Origin: an uncultured Clostridia bacterium
GTDB taxonomy: Bacteria; Bacillota; Clostridia; Oscillospirales; Ruminococcaceae
Assembly: GCA_947624375.1 (NCBI GenBank)
Contig: CANQKD010000008.1
Location: 1 to 64,000, forward strand
Length of the DNA: 64,000 bases
Reading direction: 5' to 3'
The first letter of the stretch is position 1, and each line of letters opens with the position of its first letter. Positions 1 to 44,610 of the stretch are shown one piece after another. The notes beneath the pieces were generated by a model. It searched no databases. It saw only the letters and a program-made list of their open reading frames with translations, and had not been told where the DNA came from. The position numbers and the translations under genes were made by a program.

Positions 1-19
1 AAAGAGCTATGCGCTACAA

Positions 20-540
20 CTAGGGAACGCACAGCTGCTAGAGGTTAGAGGTAAGAAGTTAGAGGTTAGAAACGGTTGTGCTCATTTTGAGCAAAGCCGT
101 TCTTTCTGCGGTTTATATCCAGAGGCAAGAAGCAAGAATTTGCTTATATATAGCTTTGCGCTAACTTATCAAAATGCTCGTCTTGCCTCTTGCTTCTAAT
201 CATCTTGCTTCTAATACCTACCCACCACTTTAACAACAGAAAGAATATAGCTGTAAGAATATTCTGCCAGCTATATTCTTTGTGGCGGATTGTGGGAGGG
301 ATATATTCTATTTCAATAATAATCTTATAATTAGCAGTACAGATAAGCCCTAATTTCTTGCCTCTTGCCTCTAGTTTTCTTGCTTCTGATACCCACAAAC
401 CACCCAACTTAAAAGAAATTTGATAGAAGAATATTCTGCCGACGAACTTCTTTGGGAGGCTAGGGTGAGGGGATTAGATTTAAGATTATTAGAGGTAAAA
501 TGTGCGGTATTTTCGCTTCGTTTGGCGTTCCATAATGGAA
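20..540. repeat. Mosaic intergenic repeat locus 1. It holds purine-rich 'agagg(c/t)(a/t)agaag' motifs in both orientations (38-76, 121-137, rc 181-213, rc 351-392) and two ~90-nt units of a 'ccaccc...gaagaatattctgc...ttctttg...gggagggtgagggg' hairpin element (214-305, 392-475)
   Basis: Read directly from the sequence. The same motifs recur at 42358-42840. Unit 1 has nested palindromes: agaatatagctg / cagctatattct around the self-palindromic agaatattct. Confidence 0.6.
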
Positions 541-895
541 CGCGGCAAAAGAGCATAGGTCTTTTTAAAGGAAAATCCCTCTCTTGCAGGGATTTTCCTC
601 TTGTGAAATAGTCCACCGGACTATTTCACAATTCACCTTTTGCGGAGCGCATGCTGTGTTTGTGGGGCTTTGCCCCACACCCCACGACCCTTTTGAAAAA
701 GGGTCGATCGAAAACTTTTAGTTTCTTGACAGGGCTTAATACTTTTGCGTACTGTGGATAGCAAAGGAAAAAAGCCCGTCACACCGTAAGGTGTGCGCCG
801 CCGACCGTTTTTGGCGGCGAGGGATTTTTTCTGCACTTGAACGACTGCTTGCAGGCGTTCAATGTGTGAGCTCCGCAGGCTTGCGCGACAGCGCA
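527..895. repeat. Palindromic-unit block A, copy 1. In order: gcgttccataatggaacgc; aggaaaatccctctcttgcagggattttcct; gtgaaatagtccaccggactatttcac; ggggctttgcccc; gacccttttgaaaaagggtc; then a TTGACA-containing 3' tail
   Basis: All hairpins can be read as perfect inverted repeats. The block is near-identical to 28501-29005, where the first ~105 nt are present as the exact reverse complement. Confidence 0.65.
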
Positions 896-899
896 ACAA

Positions 900-15737: not shown

Positions 15738-18700
15738 TTACTCATCATCATTTTCCGATGCGTTTTTATTACCGTCATCTGATTTTTCTGAGGCTGCAAT
15801 ATCTCCCGATGCTGTGTAGATGCTGTTAAGCAGTTCTAACACACGGATGAACAGGGGATCGTTCTTTATTTCCGGTTTTTCAATAATGGCAATTTCTTTT
15901 TCAAAGCAACGTTTTACAGCGGCAATATCACCTTGCTTTAAAAAGCTCACGATCAGACCTGTAAAGCATATACAAAAACTATTGCAGCAAAGATCAAGCG
16001 CCACCTTGTTTATATTAGAGTCCTCATGTTCTGCCAGTTTCTCCCTGATGGGAATTTCCTTTTCATATAATTCTACTGCGTAAGCGTAGTCTTCCTGCTT
16101 TTGGCAGATGTCGCCAAGATCTCTGTAGCAATCAGCAAGTTTTTTCAGGTTATCGCCGTGATCATCATTTTCTGCCTTTTTTTCTAAAATGGCAATTGCT
16201 TTTTCAAAACAGATCTTAGCCTCGCCGTAGTCTTTCGTTTCTTTGCAGATGCTGCCAAGCACGCTTAACACAGTGATGTACATTGGCTTGTTCTTTATTT
16301 CCGGTTTTTCAATAATGGCAATTTCTTTTTCAAAGCAACGTTTTACAGCGGCAATATCACCTTGCTTTAAAAAGCTCACGATCAGACCTGTAAAGCATAT
16401 ACAAAAACTATTGCAGCAAAGATCAAGCGCCACCTTGTTTATATTAGAGTCCTCATGTTCTGCCAGTTTCTCCCTGATGGGAATTTCCTTTTCATATAAT
16501 TCTACTGCGTAAGCGTAGTCTTCCTGCTTTTGGCAGATGTCGCCAAGATCTCTGTAGCAATCAGCAAGTTTTTTCAGGTTATCGCCGTGATCATCATTTT
16601 CTGCCTTTTTTTCTAAAATGGCAATTGCTTTTTCAAAACAGATCTTAGCCTCGCCGTAGTCTTTCGTTTCTTTGCAGATGCTGCCAAGCACGCTTAACAC
16701 AGTGATGTACATTGGCTTGTTCTTTATTGCCGGTTTTTCAATAATGGCAATTTCTTTTTCATAGCAATTTTTTGCAGCAGCAAGATCACCTTGCTTTACA
16801 AAGCGTATGAGCAGACTAGTAAAGCATAAACAAAAACTATTGCAGCAAAGATCAAGTGCCACCTTGTTTATATAAGGGCCCTCATGTTCTGCCAGTTTTT
16901 CTCTGATGGGAATTTCTTTTTTATATAATTCTACTGCGTAAGCGTAGTCTTCCTGCTTTTGGCAGATGTCGCCAAGATCTCTGTAACAATCAGCAAGTAC
17001 TTTCAGCATTGCATCAGGATCATCAGGTCCCGCTAGTTTTTCTAAAATGGCAATAGCTTTTTCATATCGGTCTTTAGCAGTTATGTAGTCTTCCTGCTTT
17101 TTGCAGATGTCGCCAAGATCGCTGTAACAAACAGCGATATTTTTCTGTGTCTCGTCAGAATCATCATGCTCAGCCAGCCTTTCTAAAATGGCAAGCGCTT
17201 TTTCATAACGTTCTTCAGCGGTGAAGTAGTCTTGTTGTTTTTTGCTGACGTCACCAAGATCGCTGTAACAAACGGCGATATCTCTTTGTATATCGTCAGG
17301 ATCATAATGCTTTGCCGGTTTCTCTAAATATTTAAGCGCTAGTTTATACGATTCTTCAGCGTAGTCGTATTCTTTGTATTTTTTGTAGTACATCTGGGCA
17401 TTACCAACAAGTCGGTAACAAAGAGAGACTGCTTTTTGCGCATATTCACGCTCGTCATCTTTTTTTGATAGTTTTTTTGGAGCTTTGTCAAACCAAATTT
17501 CCGCTGCCCAAATATAGCCTTTTCTCACGCAAATGATACCGATCTCGTAAGCAGTTTTAAAATCATCGTTCAGATGTGAAGTGTCTAAGTTTTCTGTTTT
17601 TGCTATGTCTTCTAAGGTGGATCCTTTTTCTCTTAAAATTGCTTTGCTCTGTAAAAATTCTTTGCCAAGAGATCCATAGGTCATATCCAGAGACTCGATC
17701 CATTCTTTTGCACCAGCAATATCGCCCTGCCTGTCACAGTCGTCGGCATGCCTGAAACAACGTGTAACAAACTTTTCAAAGTGTTTTTCCTCGATCAGCT
17801 TATCGGTTGCAACAGCCTTTTCAAAATAGACTTTTGCAGCGTCATTATCGCCCAGCTTGTGACAGAACACATAAAGCTTTACATAAGTTTCAGAAAGCGT
17901 GAAAAATGACATCTCGGAATTTTTTTCTTCTGCCTCTTTTTCTCTGACTGTGACTACTTTTTCATACCATACTCTGGCATTTGAAATATCTCCGTTCTTC
18001 TCATGAAAATCACCGATATCACTGTACAAATAATAAAACCGATCATTTGCCTTGTCAACATCTTCGGTCGCAGCCAGTTTTTCAGTAGCTTCGGCAGCTC
18101 TTTCATACCACATTATTGCCATGGGCAGATCTTCAAGATGTTTTCGCCAAAAATCGCCGGAAAAATTATAGATGCTATACAGTTCGCGGTATTCTTCAGC
18201 AGTGCCGATATGATCCGGCAGTTTTTCTTTGACCTTGAATGCTTTTTCTGACCACTCTATTGATTCCTGCGTTTTGTTAAGCTGTAAATAAGAAAAGCTT
18301 ATATCTAACAGCGTCTTGAAAAGATGATTTTCAAACCAATCATCAGAAAACCGCTTCATCAGTTCTTCTAAAACAGCAAGTTCTTTTTTGTATAGTTCCA
18401 GCGCATCCCACCAATTTGCATAAATTATTTCCCAATAATCCCATGTTTGTGTGGTATCTGATGCCCATTGACGGTAATCGAGCATCCATTGTCTTGCATC
18501 GCTTTCTGCCCCTGTTTTTTTGTACTGCTCTTCTCTGAGCTGCACAAGGCGTTTTTGCCATTTGATAGCATTCGGGAAATCACGCTCAACGCCCTCGCCT
18601 TCATGATATAAACTTGCCAGCTTTGAAATTGCTTCGGGCAGGTCTTGCTCTGCTGCGGCGGTTATCATCTTCACGGCACGTTCACGGTCTACCTCAACAT

Positions 18701-19643
18701 CTATTCCCGAAAGATATGCCAGCCCTATAAAAAACAGGTGCTGAGGGTCGTTGTTTTCTGTGCTTTCAAGCCCTAGCGCCTGTCTGACAGTCTCGGCGAT
18801 GCATTTCGGGTCACCTGCTGATATGGGCGAGGGTATATCTTTATACTTCTCCTGCAGAGCTTGTTTATCGGTTTCTACAAGTTCTACCGGCATAACGGGC
18901 TTTTGGCTTCTGGCAGCCTCTGGGTATTCCGTCGTCATCACATAGTTGTTGTCTTCCAGCAGATTCGGCGTTACCGCAAGAGCAAAAAGTTCGCTTTTTT
19001 TCATTGCTTCTTCTATTGCCTCGTTAAAGTTTTCGCCCGGCACAAGAAATTCATCATACCATATAGCGATATCGCGGCAAAAATCATTGCTGTGTATCAG
19101 CCGCATAAGCTTCTGCGCATATTCTCTGTCTTTTTTGCGGTAGCTGAGAAACACATATGCATCAAATGCAGCACGTATTTTTTCGATCATTTCATCGCCT
19201 ATAAGCACCGAATCAAGATATTGCTTCAGCTTGTATTCATAGCTTATCTGTGTGCGGTCATGAGAGTTTCGGTTCAGCATTTGCAGATCGCCGCATTTTT
19301 TGTTGAACGCCTCTTCAATATCGCTGTCTTCCTGTATTGGCAGCACGGGGATATGAAGTTTCTGTGCTTTTCTGAACACCTCAGAAAACGCAAAGGTATC
19401 CTGCTTGACAAAATTTGTGGTCACAACAAGCACTATCAGCTGCATGGATCTCAGGTCGCCTTTAAATGTTTTCATGTCCTCGGGGCGCTCGGGGTCGGGG
19501 TCATAAAACACGGCGCAGTTGCTGAATTTCAGCAGGTCGTCGGCTATTTCGTGCAAATACTTTTCAAATCCTGCGCTGTGACCGGTCACATACACTTTGG
19601 GTATGCCCTGCGCACTTATGCCTTTTCTGGTTATATACTGCAT
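15738..19643 (-). CDS. 1301-aa protein: an N-terminal TIR-like domain, a canonical TIR domain (AYVFLSYRKKD...IAIWYDEF), Sel1-like repeats, and then a long TPR array of more than 25 repeats that contains three in-frame 143-aa tandem units
   Basis: The TIR-domain call comes from motifs seen directly (VFLSYR, WYDE..L.PGE, a SELFALAVTPN βD-like strand). The Sel1 repeat is LAYLSGIDVEVDRERAVKMITAAAEQ. The gene is monocistronic and flanked by terminators. Confidence 0.8.
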   Translation of the reverse strand: MQYITRKGISAQGIPKVYVTGHSAGFEKYLHEIADDLLKFSNCAVFYDPDPERPEDMKTFKGDLRSMQLIVLVVTTNFVKQDTFAFSEVFRKAQKLHIPVLPIQEDSDIEEAFNKKCGDLQMLNRNSHDRTQISYEYKLKQYLDSVLIGDEMIEKIRAAFDAYVFLSYRKKDREYAQKLMRLIHSNDFCRDIAIWYDEFLVPGENFNEAIEEAMKKSELFALAVTPNLLEDNNYVMTTEYPEAARSQKPVMPVELVETDKQALQEKYKDIPSPISAGDPKCIAETVRQALGLESTENNDPQHLFFIGLAYLSGIDVEVDRERAVKMITAAAEQDLPEAISKLASLYHEGEGVERDFPNAIKWQKRLVQLREEQYKKTGAESDARQWMLDYRQWASDTTQTWDYWEIIYANWWDALELYKKELAVLEELMKRFSDDWFENHLFKTLLDISFSYLQLNKTQESIEWSEKAFKVKEKLPDHIGTAEEYRELYSIYNFSGDFWRKHLEDLPMAIMWYERAAEATEKLAATEDVDKANDRFYYLYSDIGDFHEKNGDISNARVWYEKVVTVREKEAEEKNSEMSFFTLSETYVKLYVFCHKLGDNDAAKVYFEKAVATDKLIEEKHFEKFVTRCFRHADDCDRQGDIAGAKEWIESLDMTYGSLGKEFLQSKAILREKGSTLEDIAKTENLDTSHLNDDFKTAYEIGIICVRKGYIWAAEIWFDKAPKKLSKKDDEREYAQKAVSLCYRLVGNAQMYYKKYKEYDYAEESYKLALKYLEKPAKHYDPDDIQRDIAVCYSDLGDVSKKQQDYFTAEERYEKALAILERLAEHDDSDETQKNIAVCYSDLGDICKKQEDYITAKDRYEKAIAILEKLAGPDDPDAMLKVLADCYRDLGDICQKQEDYAYAVELYKKEIPIREKLAEHEGPYINKVALDLCCNSFCLCFTSLLIRFVKQGDLAAAKNCYEKEIAIIEKPAIKNKPMYITVLSVLGSICKETKDYGEAKICFEKAIAILEKKAENDDHGDNLKKLADCYRDLGDICQKQEDYAYAVELYEKEIPIREKLAEHEDSNINKVALDLCCNSFCICFTGLIVSFLKQGDIAAVKRCFEKEIAIIEKPEIKNKPMYITVLSVLGSICKETKDYGEAKICFEKAIAILEKKAENDDHGDNLKKLADCYRDLGDICQKQEDYAYAVELYEKEIPIREKLAEHEDSNINKVALDLCCNSFCICFTGLIVSFLKQGDIAAVKRCFEKEIAIIEKPEIKNDPLFIRVLELLNSIYTASGDIAASEKSDDGNKNASENDDE
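15861..17147. repeat. Three tandem 429-bp (143-codon) repeats inside the TIR-TPR gene. Units 15861-16289 and 16290-16718 are essentially identical; unit 3 (16719-17147) is diverged
   Basis: Shown by direct comparison of the sequence. The antisense ORFs 15820-16083 and 16243-16512 are mirror artefacts of these repeats. Confidence 0.85.
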
Positions 19644-27477: not shown

Positions 27478-27501
27478 AATATATAAGGTATGGTGAATAA
27501 A

Positions 27502-28326
27502 ATGAGCGAATGTACACATGATTGCTCCACTTGTTCGAGCAATTGCAGCGAAAGACAAGATTTTCACGAGCCGCCTCACGAGCTTTCAAAGATAAAGAAA
27601 GTTATAGGCGTAGTAAGCGGCAAAGGAGGAGTAGGCAAGTCGATAGTTACCTCAATGCTTGCAACTTTGGTAAACAGAAACGGTTTTGCAACTGCTATTC
27701 TTGATGCCGACGTTACAGGCCCTTCAATACCAAAAGCGTTCGGCGTGCATGAAAGAGCGCAGGGGAATGAAAACAGTATTTTTCCCGTGAAGACCACAAA
27801 GGGCATCGAGATCATGAGCGTAAATCTTTTGCTTGAAAACGAAAACGACCCCGTTGTGTGGCGCGGACCCGTTATAGCAGGCGTGGTAAAGCAGTTCTGG
27901 CAGGACGTTATATGGAACGACGTTGACTTTATGTTTGTAGATATGCCTCCCGGAACGGGTGACGTGCCGCTGACGGTATTTCAGACGATAAAGCTTGACG
28001 GCATAATAATAGTTGCATCGCCGCAGGAGCTTGTTTCGCTGATAGTAGAAAAAGCCGTAAAAATGGCGAATATGATGAATATACCCATTCTCGGAGTAAT
28101 CGAGAATATGAGCTATGTTGAGTGCCCTGACTGCCATAAACAGATAAAGCTCTACGGCGAGAGCAATATTGACAAGATAGCGCAGCAGTACGGTATGCCC
28201 GTGCTTGCAAAGCTGCCCGTAGTGCCCGAGCTTGCAAAGCAGGTCGATGCAGGGCTTATAGAGCTTTTCGAGGGCGACTGGCTTGACGACTGCGTAAACA
28301 GGCTGATCTCAATGCTTGAAGAATGA
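27502..28326 (+). CDS. Mrp/ApbC/NBP35-family iron-sulfur cluster carrier ATPase
   Basis: Deviant Walker A GKGGVGKS, an N-terminal Cys-rich motif and a CPxC-like CPDCHKQ motif. Confidence 0.85.
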   Translation: MSECTHDCSTCSSNCSERQDFHEPPHELSKIKKVIGVVSGKGGVGKSIVTSMLATLVNRNGFATAILDADVTGPSIPKAFGVHERAQGNENSIFPVKTTKGIEIMSVNLLLENENDPVVWRGPVIAGVVKQFWQDVIWNDVDFMFVDMPPGTGDVPLTVFQTIKLDGIIIVASPQELVSLIVEKAVKMANMMNIPILGVIENMSYVECPDCHKQIKLYGESNIDKIAQQYGMPVLAKLPVVPELAKQVDAGLIELFEGDWLDDCVNRLISMLEE

Positions 28327-28500
28327 AAGCTGCTTTTGCACGTAATAATGTCGCTGCTTTCGCAGCAAGCCTGCGGAGCTGTTCGACGACCCACCAAAGT
28401 TGCCTCGCCAAAACGGAAAAGTTTTCGGTCAAGCCTTTTTCAAAAGGCTTGCGGGGAGTGGGGCAGCGCCCCACAAGGACACAGCGTGCGCTCCGAAAAA

Positions 28501-29005
28501 GGTGAATTGTGAAATAGTCCGGTGGACTATTTCACAAGAGGAAAATCCCTGCAAGAGAGGGATTTTCCTGTGAGAAGTTATCGCTCTCTTGTCGCGTTCC
28601 AGAATGGAACGCCGTGCTGTATGTGAAGTTTTAGCTGGCTCATAGGCGCAAACTTTTAACAATGCTGTTGCGCACGCAAGCGCGCGCAGAAAATATAGTC
28701 GGGTCTTTTCAAAGGGAACGCCCTCTCTTGCATGGGCGTAGCGTTCCCTTTGGGAACGCCTGAAGAATTATTTCGCCGCAAAAACTAAAAGCGAAATAAT
28801 TCTTCCCTCGCGGTCGTTTACGACCGCTACACCCATTTGCGGAGCGCCTGCCGCGTTTTCGGGGGCTCTGCCCCCATACCCCCGTGACCCTTTTGAAAAA
28901 GGGTCAATCGAAAACTTTTATTTTCTTGACAAGGCTTAAAACTTTAGTGTACTGGGGAGCGTTGAACAGCTCCACAGGCTGCGCGTAAGCGCAACTATTA
29001 CACTT
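28501..29005. repeat. Palindromic-unit block A, copy 2, in the convergent intergenic region. Positions 28501-28570 are the exact reverse complement of 564-633. Additional hairpin modules occupy 28586-28830. The direct-orientation module 28833-29005 matches 634-895
   Basis: Read directly from the sequence. There are many perfect hairpins, for example gaagaattatttcgc...gcgaaataattcttc and gcggtcgtttacgaccgc. Confidence 0.65.
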
Positions 29006-29059
29006 ATGCATAAGCAAGATAACAAAAAAGCCGTCTTTTTCAAGGCGGTCTTTTCTTTG

Positions 29060-30301
29060 TTAATTTGCCCTTTTTGCGTTTGCAAGCATAAGCTTTATGC
29101 GGTTTTCCTGGTTTACCTTGGTCGCGCCGGGGTCGTAATCTATCGCAACTATGTTTGCCTCGGGGTATGCCTCTTTTATAACGCGCATCATACCCTTTGC
29201 AACAATGTGGTTGGGCAGACACCCGAACGGCTGCGTGCAGATTATATTTTCTGTGCCGCTCTCGGCAAGAGCCGCCATTTCAGCAGTTATCAGCCAGCCC
29301 TCACCCATTTTTACGCCCTGGTTTATGTACTTGTCGGCGTAGCGGCGAAGCTCCTCAAAATCGTGAGGAGGGAAGAACACCCCGTGCTCTTTCACTGCCT
29401 TTATCTGCTGCTTCTGATAAGTGTACAACGCCTTGTAACCCACCGCATAGCCGTAATATCCGCTGTCCTTGCGGTCGTAAAGCTTGCCGTCGTTTATCCT
29501 GTCGGTCGCGCAGTACATTACAAAGTCTAAAAGCCCGGGCACATTCGGCTCGCACCCCTCCGAGATAAGAAACTCATTCAGATGATTGTTAGCCAGCGGC
29601 GAGTATTTTACATAAATCTCGCCCACAATGCCCACACGCGGCTTTTTTTCTTTGGTGCGCTCTATCGAGGCAAAGTCGTTAAGTATAGCTCTGTAGTGCC
29701 GCTTGGTGTCAAAAAACTTGTTCTCCGCGAACATCTTTCCCAGCCGTTTTTCCCACTTTTCAAGCATCTTGTCGGTGTCACCCTTGTTCACCTCATACGG
29801 CACGCACTGGTTGTAAAGCAGCATAAGCAGGTCGCCGTAAAGTACGCCGTATATAAGCTTTACCATTATGGGCACGGTTATCTTGAACGCAGGGTTTTTC
29901 TCCAGTCCGCTGAAATTGAGTGATATAACAGGCACCTGCGGAAACTCAGCTGAGATAGCCTTTCTTATCAGATGGATGTAGTTTGAAGCACGGCAGCCGC
30001 CGCCCGTCTGCGACATAAGCAGAGCCGTTTTGTTCACATCATACTTGCCGCTTTTCAGTGCATCCATAAACTGCCCTATGACCAGCAGAGCAGGGTAGCA
30101 GGTGTCGTTGTGTGTATTTTTCAGACCCTCGTCAACAACATTTCGCGAGGTGTTCGTCAGCAGCTCCATGTGGTAGCCGTAATTTTCAAATATCTGCATT
30201 ATCAGCCGGAAATGAATAGGCAGCATATCGGGCACAAGTATCGTGTAGTCCTTTTTCATTTCCTCGGTAAATACAGTTTGTTCAACTCTTTCAGAAGCCA
30301 T
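29060..30301 (-). CDS. 2-hydroxyacyl-CoA-dehydratase-associated uncharacterised domain protein (DUF2229-like partner of the upstream activase)
   Basis: 413 aa, with conserved pairing to the BadF/BcrAD-type activase gene immediately upstream. Confidence 0.65.
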   Translation of the reverse strand: MASERVEQTVFTEEMKKDYTILVPDMLPIHFRLIMQIFENYGYHMELLTNTSRNVVDEGLKNTHNDTCYPALLVIGQFMDALKSGKYDVNKTALLMSQTGGGCRASNYIHLIRKAISAEFPQVPVISLNFSGLEKNPAFKITVPIMVKLIYGVLYGDLLMLLYNQCVPYEVNKGDTDKMLEKWEKRLGKMFAENKFFDTKRHYRAILNDFASIERTKEKKPRVGIVGEIYVKYSPLANNHLNEFLISEGCEPNVPGLLDFVMYCATDRINDGKLYDRKDSGYYGYAVGYKALYTYQKQQIKAVKEHGVFFPPHDFEELRRYADKYINQGVKMGEGWLITAEMAALAESGTENIICTQPFGCLPNHIVAKGMMRVIKEAYPEANIVAIDYDPGATKVNQENRIKLMLANAKRAN

Positions 30302-33489: not shown

Positions 33490-33838
33490 TATGTGAGCAG
33501 ACTATGCGATAGCGTAAACGTTTAGTTTATGAGGAAAGTCCGGGCATCACAGAGCAGGGTAGCTGATAACGTCAGCCGAGGGTGACCTCAGAGCAAGTGC
33601 AACAGAGATATACCGCCGCTTTATGCGGTAAGGGTGGAAAGGTGCGGTAAGAGCGCACCGGACGGCATGAGAATGCCGTGCCATGTAAACCTTACCCGAT
33701 GCAACTCCAATGGTAGGCAGAAAGCCAATGTCTGCTCGGCAGGCTGATGCCTATAGGGGGCTGGAGCCTTGCGGCGACGCAGGGCGCAGATAGATTATCG
33801 CACACGACAGAACCCGGCTTATCGGTCTGGTCACAGCA
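33490..33838 (+). ncRNA. rnpB: RNase P RNA, bacterial type A
   Basis: P4 strands GAGGAAAGUCCGGGC and ACAGAACCCGGCUUA. Internal segments AGGGUAGCUGAUAACGUCAGCC..., GUGCAACAGAGA, GGUAAGGGUGGAAAGGUGCGGUAAGAGCGCACC and UGUAAACC align with E. coli M1 RNA. P1 pairs ~33490-33510 with ~33818-33838. Confidence 0.85.
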
Positions 33839-42281: not shown

Positions 42282-42357
42282 TATGTTCCTCCGTTCGTAA
42301 TGAGCGAAAATTTCTGTATAAATTATAGCACAAAACGCCCGGCAAGTCAATATAGAT

Positions 42358-42840
42358 GCAAGAAGTAAGAGGTCAGAAGTCAGAAATGTTTATTACGAGC
42401 TTTGCGGCAGTTTTTCATACCTGCGGTTTACAAGAGGCAAGAATGCGCCCCACAGCCTCTGTTCACCGCTCCACATTCTCTGCTTCTCTCTAAAACTCCG
42501 TGCCACCCCCTACATCACTAGAAGAATATACTGTCAGTCGCATTTCTTTGAATGTCCGCAGGGTGGGGGATAGTATTTATTATTTTAGAACAACTAAGTA
42601 TAAGCGGTGAACGCGCTCCTGCGCCGCGCGTAAGCGCAAACCAACAACAGCTGACCGCCGTACTTTTCCGCGCCCCTCACCCAGATAATAGCACATTTCC
42701 CCTCACGTCACCGGAAGAATATTCTGCTAACGCACTTTTTTGAAGACGTGTGGAGGGTGGGGGATAGTATTTATTATTTTAGAACAACTAAGTATAAGCG
42801 GTGAACGCGCTCCTGCGCCGCGCGTAAGCGCAATAAAAAA
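42358..42840. repeat. Mosaic repeat locus 3. Purine-rich agaggcaagaa motifs (42358-42450) are followed by a ~195-bp tandem duplication (42519-42638 and 42712-42833) of the 'gaagaatattctgc...gggtggggg' element, which includes an exact 80-nt duplicate
   Basis: The 80-nt core agggtgggggatagtatttattattttagaacaactaagtataagcggtgaacgcgctcctgcgccgcgcgtaagcgcaa occurs at 42559-42638 and 42754-42833. Confidence 0.7.
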
Positions 42841-43663: not shown

Positions 43664-44167
43664 TCACCCTGCCGTTACAAGCTTTTTGAAGTACTTGTTT
43701 TTCTCCATTATTGTGAATATCACCACGCCAAGTACCGTTACGCACACTGCCTCGCCTATAGCTACCTCAGCCGCCGATAGCCAGAAAGGCAGATGCACAA
43801 ATACTTTCAGCTCCATGCCAACTATCAGAGCATTGCTTATAACAGGCATAAGCGATGCCGCTATCATCTTCGGCAGACGGTTTTTCTCAGCGTTCCTGCC
43901 TATTAAATACATCGGTATCGCCGCCGCCAGCGTTGCCAGAGTGCCGAATACCATGTCAAGCGCCATAGGGCTGAATATGTTCGCTATAAAGCACCCGACC
44001 GTAAGCGCCGCGCAGTACCTCTTTTTGTAAAAACACAGCATCATCAGCGCCTCCGCTATCCTGAACTGTATGTTACCGTATGATAAACTGCTCAGTGCTA
44101 CCGTCAGTGCCGCGTATGCCGCCGCTACCAATCCTGCCGTCGCTATCGCTTTTGTGTCTATCTTCAT
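43664..44167 (-). CDS. QueT-family (queuosine precursor) transporter-like small membrane protein
   Basis: 167 aa with 5 TM helices. Its size and topology are typical of QueT/ECF-S-like proteins. An AGGAGG RBS is present. Confidence 0.6.
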   Translation of the reverse strand: MKIDTKAIATAGLVAAAYAALTVALSSLSYGNIQFRIAEALMMLCFYKKRYCAALTVGCFIANIFSPMALDMVFGTLATLAAAIPMYLIGRNAEKNRLPKMIAASLMPVISNALIVGMELKVFVHLPFWLSAAEVAIGEAVCVTVLGVVIFTIMEKNKYFKKLVTAG

Positions 44168-44610
44168 CTTCTATTCCTCCTGCTTTTAGTATTTCAGACC
44201 GCAGTTTTGCTTGCTGTTATTACGTTGCTTTTGGGGGAGACCCTTTTGGAAAAGGGTCGTCCCCCAAGCCCCCTCACTAAAACTTCCATATTTTTTGCGA
44301 GGGGTAATTATCATTGAAAAAGAAATTAAAAGCTTGTCTTTTTGCGTTCTTTCTAAAACGAATTACCCCTCGCAAAAAACAATATAAAAGTCTTTGGAAA
44401 GGGGTATGGGGAATAACCTTTCTTCAGAAAGGTTTTCCCCAGAGGCAGTATAGTAACAGCAGGCAGACCGTGATCTGCAAATTACAAAACAGAAAGGCAA
44501 CAAAAAGGTGCGGCTGCAGGGAACAGACGCACCTTGTAAAAACACAGTAATTGCCGTTCCTGTTTTTATTAACGAGTGGTTTCCCGGAATACACTCGGTG
44601 AAGGCTGAAA

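Follow-up and report, generated by a model that had tools for sequence, protein, structure and literature searches.

What kind of element forms the clusters of perfect hairpins at two places in the first 64,000 nucleotides of contig CANQKD010000008.1, from an uncultured Clostridia bacterium of the Ruminococcaceae, and how did it come to be repeated? A sequence-only reading of this whole stretch, which we call the window, had likened the clusters to REP units (repetitive extragenic palindromes) and bacterial interspersed mosaic elements (BIMEs) of enterobacteria. We found that they belong to a family of modular, perfectly palindromic repeats that is present in many copies, differs between strains and species, and carries no gene in cis. 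On balance we favor the reading that these are nonautonomous mosaic hairpin repeats, spread by a putative trans-acting factor and/or template switching and tolerated at the 3' ends of genes.

Region reading, a repeat finder, BLAST, and a three-way alignment resolved three copies of one modular element in the window, 260 to 370 nt each, along with a truncated copy at its start:

525-896, plus strand: copy A, a complete long-form copy of 372 nt, directed at the 3' end of spo0A (E = 3.9e-61 in an nhmmer search with the long-form profile)
28351-28612, minus strand: copy B, a complete long-form copy of 262 nt (nhmmer, E = 1.9e-56)
28668-28994, plus strand: copy C, a diverged long-form copy of 327 nt, head to head with copy B
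1-30, plus strand: a truncated long-form copy (the linker between hairpins HP1 and HP2, plus the 5' arm of HP2), interrupted by a purine-tract repeat

The gene context is as the earlier reading described it. Only 3 nt separate the 3' end of copy A from the stop codon of the minus-strand gene spo0A (900-1676), while copies B and C, whose 5' ends are about 55 nt apart, occupy the region between two convergent genes (27490-28326, plus strand, and 29060-30301, minus strand), with the 3' module of copy B (28351-28379) 24 nt past the stop codon of a ParA-like gene. The segment at 1-30 has the same sequence as the linker and HP2 arm in other copies, and in a related locus, L001, it continues as an alternative HP1. 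In a profile search, full copies inside the window were found at these two loci only, and dinucleotide shuffles of the window gave 0.00 to 0.03 expected chance matches for each hairpin module.

Every hairpin module was recovered, by coordinates, where it had been placed, and the roughly 120-nt tail shared in direct orientation was confirmed as the BLAST match between copies A and C (84% over 126 nt, 636-758 against 28833-28958). HP1, HP2, HP3, and gacccttttgaaaaagggtc are indeed shared modules, but the loops of the GGGGC hairpins differ and the copies are not identical. The exact reverse complementarity reported between the two loci is real but was given in a register off by 4 to 5 nt, which agrees at only 15 of 70 positions; after a 4-base shift, about 569-637 corresponds by eye to the reverse complement of 28501-28569 with a single mismatch, at the first position. 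The repeat finder likewise gave 95% complementarity over 99 nt (561-659 against 28479-28577), and in BLAST copies A and B match in inverted orientation at 88% over 199 nt (524-719 against 28613-28417). Because this inverted match runs on through the core and tail to the 3' module at 28351-28379 on the minus strand, the second locus consists of two complete copies arranged head to head, and not of a single copy with one module inverted, as had been proposed.

A degenerate pattern for the 25-base core, CCTTTTGAAAAAGG-N6-CGAAAACTTTT, matched more than 106 stretches in about 48 metagenome-assembled genomes (MAGs) of a species-representative genome collection, with at least 17 copies in Lapin-002__bin94, at least 13 in Lapin-023__bin13, and at least 11 in Lapin-018__bin88. 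Nearly all of these genomes are MAGs of uncultured Clostridia, Oscillospiraceae, or "Ruminococcus" that were recovered from the guts of rabbits, ruminants, chickens, and humans. The core pattern is exact in 125 of the 138 detectable copies, and several contigs terminate within a copy, as is expected of a dispersed repeat. The possibility of a simple segmental duplication confined to two loci, to which the restriction of full copies to these places in the window would point, can be virtually discounted given this spread over other assemblies and the lack of a recurrent flanking gene. Rfam 15 held no family matching the element at gathering or relaxed E-value thresholds (the best score within it was tfoR, 24.9 bits against a gathering threshold of 70), and literature searches by sequence string and by topic returned nothing on such repeats in this clade among the papers covered, in line with the earlier suggestion that the family had not been described for Clostridia. 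Neither of the two outcomes that the earlier reading had named as refuting it, restriction to two loci or an Rfam match, was therefore obtained. We also considered a phage or plasmid origin and rejected it on finding no core matches in viral contigs, INPHARED phages, or PLSDB plasmids.

Outside the Firmicutes, core matches occur in two stretches of a Cloacimonadota MAG (L046 and L068) and one of a Rikenellaceae MAG (L047); these contain both the core hairpin and its tail, and the base of the stem carries compensating changes (GCTCG/CGAGA, GTCG/CGAC). The presence of the core in other phyla suggests that the element has spread horizontally, that the family extends much more widely, or that contigs were binned into the wrong MAG.

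The family is extragenic, with a preference for gene 3' ends, in keeping with the position noted earlier for both loci in the window. Outside crude open reading frame (ORF) calls of at least 100 amino acids lie 104 of 125 copies; the remaining 21 overlap such calls, which may be spurious, and small ORFs overlapping the element had no Pfam match. The element is faced by gene 3' ends 103 times and by gene starts 68 times, and convergent regions are over-represented (21 of the 67 copies with both neighbors called). Between codirectional genes it was found in sense 14 times and antisense 22 times. A cis-regulatory leader was considered and rejected, as orientation and downstream genes are inconsistent. 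A GC skew profile, intended to link the orientation of copies with replication, was flat.

Two forms can be distinguished. The short form, about 75 to 110 nt, is widespread and consists of one or two GC hairpins, a C-tract, the core hairpin, and the tail, with a sharp end after CGAAAACTTTT; it often lies between codirectional genes, directly upstream of a ribosome-binding site. The long form, of which we found 40 distinct copies, adds HP1 to HP3 on the 5' side of the core and often also a TTGACA segment and a 3' module. Short-form copies can be clustered: three stand in tandem at L093 1112-1480, with a period of about 168 nt, and L043 has two copies 208 nt apart. The modules of the long form, as laid out in copy A and with their counterparts where given, are as follows:

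525-543, plus strand, and 28594-28612 (one loop mismatch): HP1, GCGTTCCA-TAA-TGGAACGC (gcgttcca-taa-tggaacgc)
569-599, plus strand, and 28539-28569, minus strand: HP2, aggaaaatccct-ctcttgc-agggattttcct, a 12-bp perfect stem with the invariant loop CTCTTGC
603-629, plus strand, and 28509-28535, minus strand: HP3, a perfect stem of 12 bp, conserved at its apex (AGTCC-ACN-GGACT)
630-661, plus strand: conserved linker AATTCACC...GCGGAGCGC, with invariant columns in the long-form alignment
662-685, plus strand: GTGGGGC-TTT-GCCCCAC hairpin, then a second C-tract, ACCCCAC
686-719, plus strand: core, made up of the hairpin GACC-CCTTTTGAAAAAGG-GGTC and the tail GATCGAAAACTTTT, the most conserved part of the family
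726-755, plus strand: TTGACA, an 18-nt spacer, and TACTGT, a weak promoter-like motif read from the sequence in the long-form clade only
766-862, plus strand: optional insert of copy A, with two GC hairpins (780-795, 796-819) between an A-run and a T-run, and a further hairpin at 837-862
870-896, plus strand: 3' module, with a CUCC-containing loop in its first hairpin, a second hairpin GCGC-GACA-GCGC, and a final AA

Copy C has the corresponding parts in diverged form:

28668-28689: alternative HP1
28714-28739: degenerate HP2-like hairpin
28741-28759, 28762-28805, and 28810-28827: extra hairpins, which recur in L034, L040, L041, L044, and L048
28886-28919: core
28969-28994: 3' module

In other copies HP1 reads GCGTTCTC-TGA-GAGAACGC or is replaced by the alternative hairpin TTGCGCACGCAAGCGCGCGCAG. 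The GGGGC hairpin is located at 662-678, 28458-28474, and 28860-28876, and by eye the second C-tract that follows it tracks its 5' arm, GTGGGG occurring with CCCCAC and CGGGGG with CCCCCG. The core palindrome gacccttttgaaaaagggtc is exact at 686-705 and 28886-28905, and a compensated variant, aagcc...ggctt, is found at 28431-28450 on the minus strand. For the 3' module, a regular expression anchored after GCTCC gave 85 candidate hairpins, 54 of which are module-like by stem and loop type; their loops are GTAA (28), GACA (14), GAAA (10), and GCAA (2), and their stems covary between GCGC and GCTGC.

Across 33 aligned long-form copies, 98.3% of cells are paired, and double changes were found in 19 of 42 pairs, compared with 2 to 5 pairs in slid controls; the observed covariation score was reached by none of 500 shuffles. 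Double changes affect 5 of 11 pairs in HP2, where no change is one-sided and 99.4% of cells are paired, and 8 of 14 pairs in HP3, which has no G-U pairs; one-sided (G-U) changes are altogether absent from both of these and from the core hairpin, whose base also covaries in 121 copies, with no G-T and 3 A-C pairs. Within one genome the stems vary at several positions simultaneously and fall into discrete types, such as GGAAAATCCC, GGGAACGCCC, and GGGGAGGCTC, while the loops stay constant. The predicted RNA fold of copy A is very stable on either strand (-174.9 kcal/mol, z = -11.2, for the plus strand and -165.7 kcal/mol, z = -9.6, for the minus strand), and over the family folding energy favors one strand in 50 copies and the other in 58, which is about equal. 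Because the stems covary without wobble while the loops stay fixed, and the two strands fold equally well, the selected property is intrastrand complementarity. The covariation data do not establish RNA as the target of selection. Correction of quasi-palindromes by template switching at the DNA level would yield perfect palindromes without wobble intermediates.

Two further structural ideas were tried and set aside. Assigning a strand from the balance of G-U and A-C pairs (0 G-T against 3 A-C) and from folding asymmetry (50 against 58) gave no signal, and a closing helix, GCGGAGC...GCTCCGC, between the linker and 870-876, which RNAfold predicts on both strands, showed no covariation across 26 copies. 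In the GGGAACGCCC variant of HP2 (for example, in L006, L025, and L031), the arms of HP1 (GGCGTTCC/GGAACGC) are complementary to those of HP2, so alternative pairings or exchange between modules may be possible; at 28714-28759 in the window, copy C has three such HP1/HP2-complementary arms in succession.

Modules occur in both orientations and many orders; some copies lie nested, some are truncated, and others are paired head to head. Between core and 3' module the spacing takes discrete lengths of 37, 49, 90, 150, and 209 nt, which match alternative inserts. These spacing classes and varied module orders bear out the original description of palindromic modules that form a mosaic, point either way, and are separated by variable inserts. 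A 3' module follows 28 of 125 cores, and 23 of the 51 3' modules in the data set have no core upstream within those distances; two of these coreless modules are in the window, where they follow units of a second repeat family, family B. Variants at the 5' and 3' ends assort independently of each other. Head-to-head dimers were found at five loci, with different module content in each, and the genes flanking the dimer in the window were not found beside the other four.

The 3' flank of spo0A allows related loci to be compared:

Window and L003: copy A plus two family B units
L001 (identical Spo0A, same upstream synteny): no copy A; one family B unit inverted; and an oppositely directed long-form copy
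L002: copy A, whose 5' flank differs
L059 (92.6% identity in Spo0A): different modules
L083, 7560-7640, minus strand: a plain terminator only

L083 comes from a related species whose Spo0A is about 96% identical over the part of the protein in the locus; since only a plain terminator follows spo0A there, we treat the site as empty in comparison with the window and its 900-nt mosaic. The turnover at this flank is that of dynamic repeated DNA, and not of a conserved gene or regulatory site. We also observed that L001 and L002, which come from the same sample (ERZ27060014), encode an identical 258-amino-acid Spo0A within two different gene neighborhoods; these are either coexisting strains with rearranged flanks or assemblies that are chimeric at repeats. 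A similar strain comparison at the second locus was uninformative, because the sole contig encoding the same ParA-like protein is identical to the window.

The earlier reading had offered a role as terminator or mRNA stabilizer. An intrinsic terminator is a GC-rich hairpin immediately followed by a U-run. A terminator scan called none of the conserved modules, which have no U-tract on either strand, so the terminator proposal survives for the optional insert (796-831) and not for the modules themselves. Within that insert, the scan called the hairpin at 796-819 with its T-run as terminator-like, and the pair of hairpins at 780-831 has the look of a bidirectional terminator; the insert is missing from copies B and C. 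Other terminator calls were made at 29030-29049, outside copy C, and at 28748-28765, inside copy C and with a weak tail. An outward sigma-70 promoter formed by TTGACA-N18-TACTGT was also considered; the promoter scan did not call it and its -10 hexamer is broken in several copies, which leaves it as a weak possibility.

How could such elements spread? We propose that the hairpins form in single-stranded DNA, as they could equally in RNA from either strand, and that the near-invariant 25-base core and the invariant loops would be recognized by a factor whose gene lies elsewhere in the genome. The candidate factor is assumed to be a structure-specific nuclease or recombinase of the HUH/RAYT kind (RAYT, REP-associated tyrosine transposase), or an analogous enzyme. 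Spread and reshuffling would then result from this factor together with template switching at palindromes during replication, and template switching would explain why the stems are perfectly complementary without G-U intermediates. Copies would persist where they are least harmful, namely, at gene 3' ends and in convergent intergenic regions, and the hairpins there would probably be incidental barriers to RNA decay or read-through. Both the mobilizing mechanism, whether single-stranded DNA or an enzyme, and the effect on RNA are what we infer from these patterns.

Several results weigh against this proposal. The RAYT/IS200-like gene anticipated by the earlier reading did not appear: Pfam found no transposase or integrase among 59 ORFs of the window (including three that overlap copy A and its flank), and a crude regular expression for Y1/HUH-like motifs had 0 matches in 833 kb of related loci plus the window. 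Clustering of 706 ORFs revealed no recurrent neighboring protein, only generic families, and neither terminal inverted repeats nor target-site duplications were seen by eye. A clean junction between filled and empty sites was not recovered, which leaves transposition itself putative. That the core is conserved across genera, and exactly so in most copies, could reflect a host function and not selfish spread. In addition, 40 of the 54 loops of the 3' hairpin are GNRA and all 54 are GNNA, and another module has a UGCG loop, which hints at RNA-level selection on one strand. GNNA- and UGCG-type loops stabilize DNA hairpins too.

A different explanation would make the long form a multicopy structured noncoding RNA gene, transcribed in the plus orientation, whose loops (CUCUUGC, the CUCC-containing loop, and GNRA) bind a protein or other RNAs. 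Strong covariation, stems that vary around invariant loops, folds with z near -11, and 3' loops limited to GTAA, GACA, GAAA, and GCAA, plus the one UGCG-loop module, all on a single strand, are what such a gene would be expected to display. We nevertheless judge it unlikely, since three helices have no G-U pairs at all and the strands are equal in folding energy; no long-range helix is supported, and therefore the structure amounts to beads on a string; a scan for promoters upstream of HP1 found none that is conserved; truncated, nested, and reshuffled copies exist; the orientation of copies relative to neighboring genes is not fixed; and Rfam holds no relative. The units might instead be kept mainly as punctuation of host RNA, as 3'-end stabilizers, insulators, or terminators, and have been multiplied by duplication and selection without mobility. 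Their enrichment at gene 3' ends and in convergent regions, the position of 3' modules so close behind the spo0A and ParA-like stop codons, the ability of perfect palindromes to function in either orientation, and the bidirectional terminator in one optional insert would all fit. We consider this quite improbable as the main explanation, given the modules without a U-tract on either strand, the short forms placed just upstream of ribosome-binding sites between codirectional genes, and the related species that makes do with a plain terminator after spo0A; punctuation alone also leaves unexplained a 25-base sequence that is invariant across genera.

That invariance would favor the idea that the near-palindromic core, CCTTTT-GA-AAAAGG with GAAAACTTTT, is a duplex DNA site for a nucleoid-associated protein or regulator and that the hairpins are incidental. 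The core is conserved to an extreme degree across about 48 MAGs, two of them from other phyla, and has an A-tract/T-tract symmetry. Four pairs flanking the core covary, however, in a way that keeps complementarity rather than sequence, and therefore argue for selection on intrastrand pairing and not on two identical half-sites; the neighboring genes, moreover, have no common function, and we regard a duplex site as very unlikely. A bolder possibility, left open by the wobble-free stems that differ inside a genome, the loops that do not change, and the core shared among genera, and one that we hold only tentatively and would not bet on, is that the core and loops are sites for a putative structure-specific enzyme that is not a RAYT or, alternatively, that the long form is a new multicopy, wobble-free structured RNA. 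If true, the enzyme version would represent a new hairpin mobilization system in Gram-positive anaerobes that reaches other phyla. The reading of nonautonomous mosaic hairpin repeats, spread in trans and/or by template switching, remains the one that we favor.

Other features of the window include ordinary chromosomal genes (among the Pfam-searched ORFs, those for Spo0A, RF-1, FeoB, PFK, and NadB/NadC, among others), and the repeats and structures listed here:

31-520 and 42351-42840: family B repeats, with purine tracts AGAGG[CT][AT]AGAAG and pyrimidine tracts CTTGCCTCTTGCTTCT
42615-42639, plus strand, and a second copy at 42809-42833: 3' modules on family B
42560-42639 and 42754-42833: an exact 80-nt duplicate within family B
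44205-44468: a palindrome, about 260 nt long, located upstream of queT (43664-44167, minus strand)
33494-33837, plus strand: RNase P RNA, class A, 268.6 bits
42991-43064, minus strand: one tRNA
15738-19643, minus strand: a gene for a 1,301-amino-acid protein with TIR_2 and TPR domains, holding 429-nt tandem repeats, some of them 100% identical

The family B unit consists of cccaccac, a agaagaatattctgc hairpin, gtgggaggg, an AT-rich stretch, and then the 3' module that it has in common with the main element; its purine motif occurs 110 times, in 32 of 109 sources. The palindrome at 44205-44468 gave only subthreshold Rfam matches, to plant miRNA precursors, which marks it as a very long hairpin; within it, at 44239-44258, lies a near-copy of the core palindrome. 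In this region upstream of queT no preQ1 riboswitch was found, and over the window the RNase P RNA and the tRNA were the only Rfam matches above threshold.

To our knowledge, the mechanism behind interspersed hairpin repeats has been worked out almost only in Proteobacteria (REP/RAYT) and a few pathogens. The family described here lives in abundant uncultured gut Clostridia and breaks their metagenome assemblies, and it is unusual in that its stems are perfect yet variable within a genome while its loops are fixed, its modules are freely exchanged, and its core is conserved across genera. If a dedicated enzyme exists, it could provide a new tool for single-stranded or hairpin DNA and an explanation for the plasticity of these bacterial genomes; should the elements act on RNA, the 3' ends of genes as central as spo0A would be altered. 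The core motif is also a ready marker for strain-level rearrangements in these MAGs.

Among known repeat systems, classical miniature inverted-repeat transposable elements (MITEs; Correia, RUP, and ERIC) are likewise short, noncoding, dispersed, and intergenic, and sometimes contain promoter-like hexamers. In contrast to these, our family is a modular mosaic instead of a fixed unit, and inspection revealed no terminal inverted repeats and no duplication of TA or another target: the short-form ends, CAGAGGGGAC... and ...CGAAAACTTTT, do not form inverted repeats, and their flanks are without duplication. Elements of the IS200/IS605 type have similar subterminal hairpins at both ends, insert 3' of a fixed tetra- or pentanucleotide, and depend on a TnpA(Y1) in the genome. 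The palindrome-associated transposable elements (PATEs) derived from them resemble our family in the lack of visible terminal inverted repeats and target duplications, in hairpins near the ends, and in a sharp 3' boundary a few bases past a hairpin (after CGAAAACTTTT in short forms and GCGCAA in long forms). The left and right hairpins here are unrelated, however, no conserved target tetranucleotide was identified, TnpA, TnpB, and IscB genes are not nearby, and there was no Rfam match of the omega-RNA/HEARO type.

The pneumococcal BOX elements are modular repeats of the form boxA-boxBn-boxC, with a fixed A...C frame and complementary ends. As far as organization goes, the likeness lies in an intergenic repeat of Firmicutes that has modules of variable number, folds strongly, has no coding capacity, and has no identified dedicated transposase; the difference is that module order is not fixed in our family, which also has a highly conserved core and a 3' module. 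REP and BIME sequences are defined by a conserved GT(A/G)G head beside an imperfect palindrome, and REPINs are mobilized by RAYT transposases (Nunvar et al. 2010, PMC2817692). Our family shares with them extragenic, multicopy, hairpin-forming units that prefer gene 3' ends; mosaics of units in both orientations with variable linkers and inverted doublets; and complementary changes that preserve palindromy. Its units, however, are perfect palindromes of 10 to 14 bp with invariant loops, compared with the approximately 35-nt imperfect palindromes of REPs and their GT(A/G)G head, and in the alignments, judged by eye, no GTAG stands 5' of HP1, HP2, HP3, or the core hairpin, where the bases vary, so membership in the enterobacterial REP/BIME family, to which the sequence-only reading had leaned, is not borne out. 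There are many unit types here instead of two or three, copy number is apparently tens per genome instead of hundreds, and the host is a Gram-positive anaerobe in which the crude motif scan of the loci plus the window turned up no RAYT, whose gene would be expected between two inverted units. With respect to the regular spacing and alternating orientation of REP units, the family shows head-to-head dimers at five loci and modules facing both ways, along with neither regular alternation nor fixed spacing. Thus, the element is REP/BIME-like in organization without being a member of the REP/RAYT system, and its organization is closest to that of the enterobacterial BIMEs/REPINs and the pneumococcal BOX elements.

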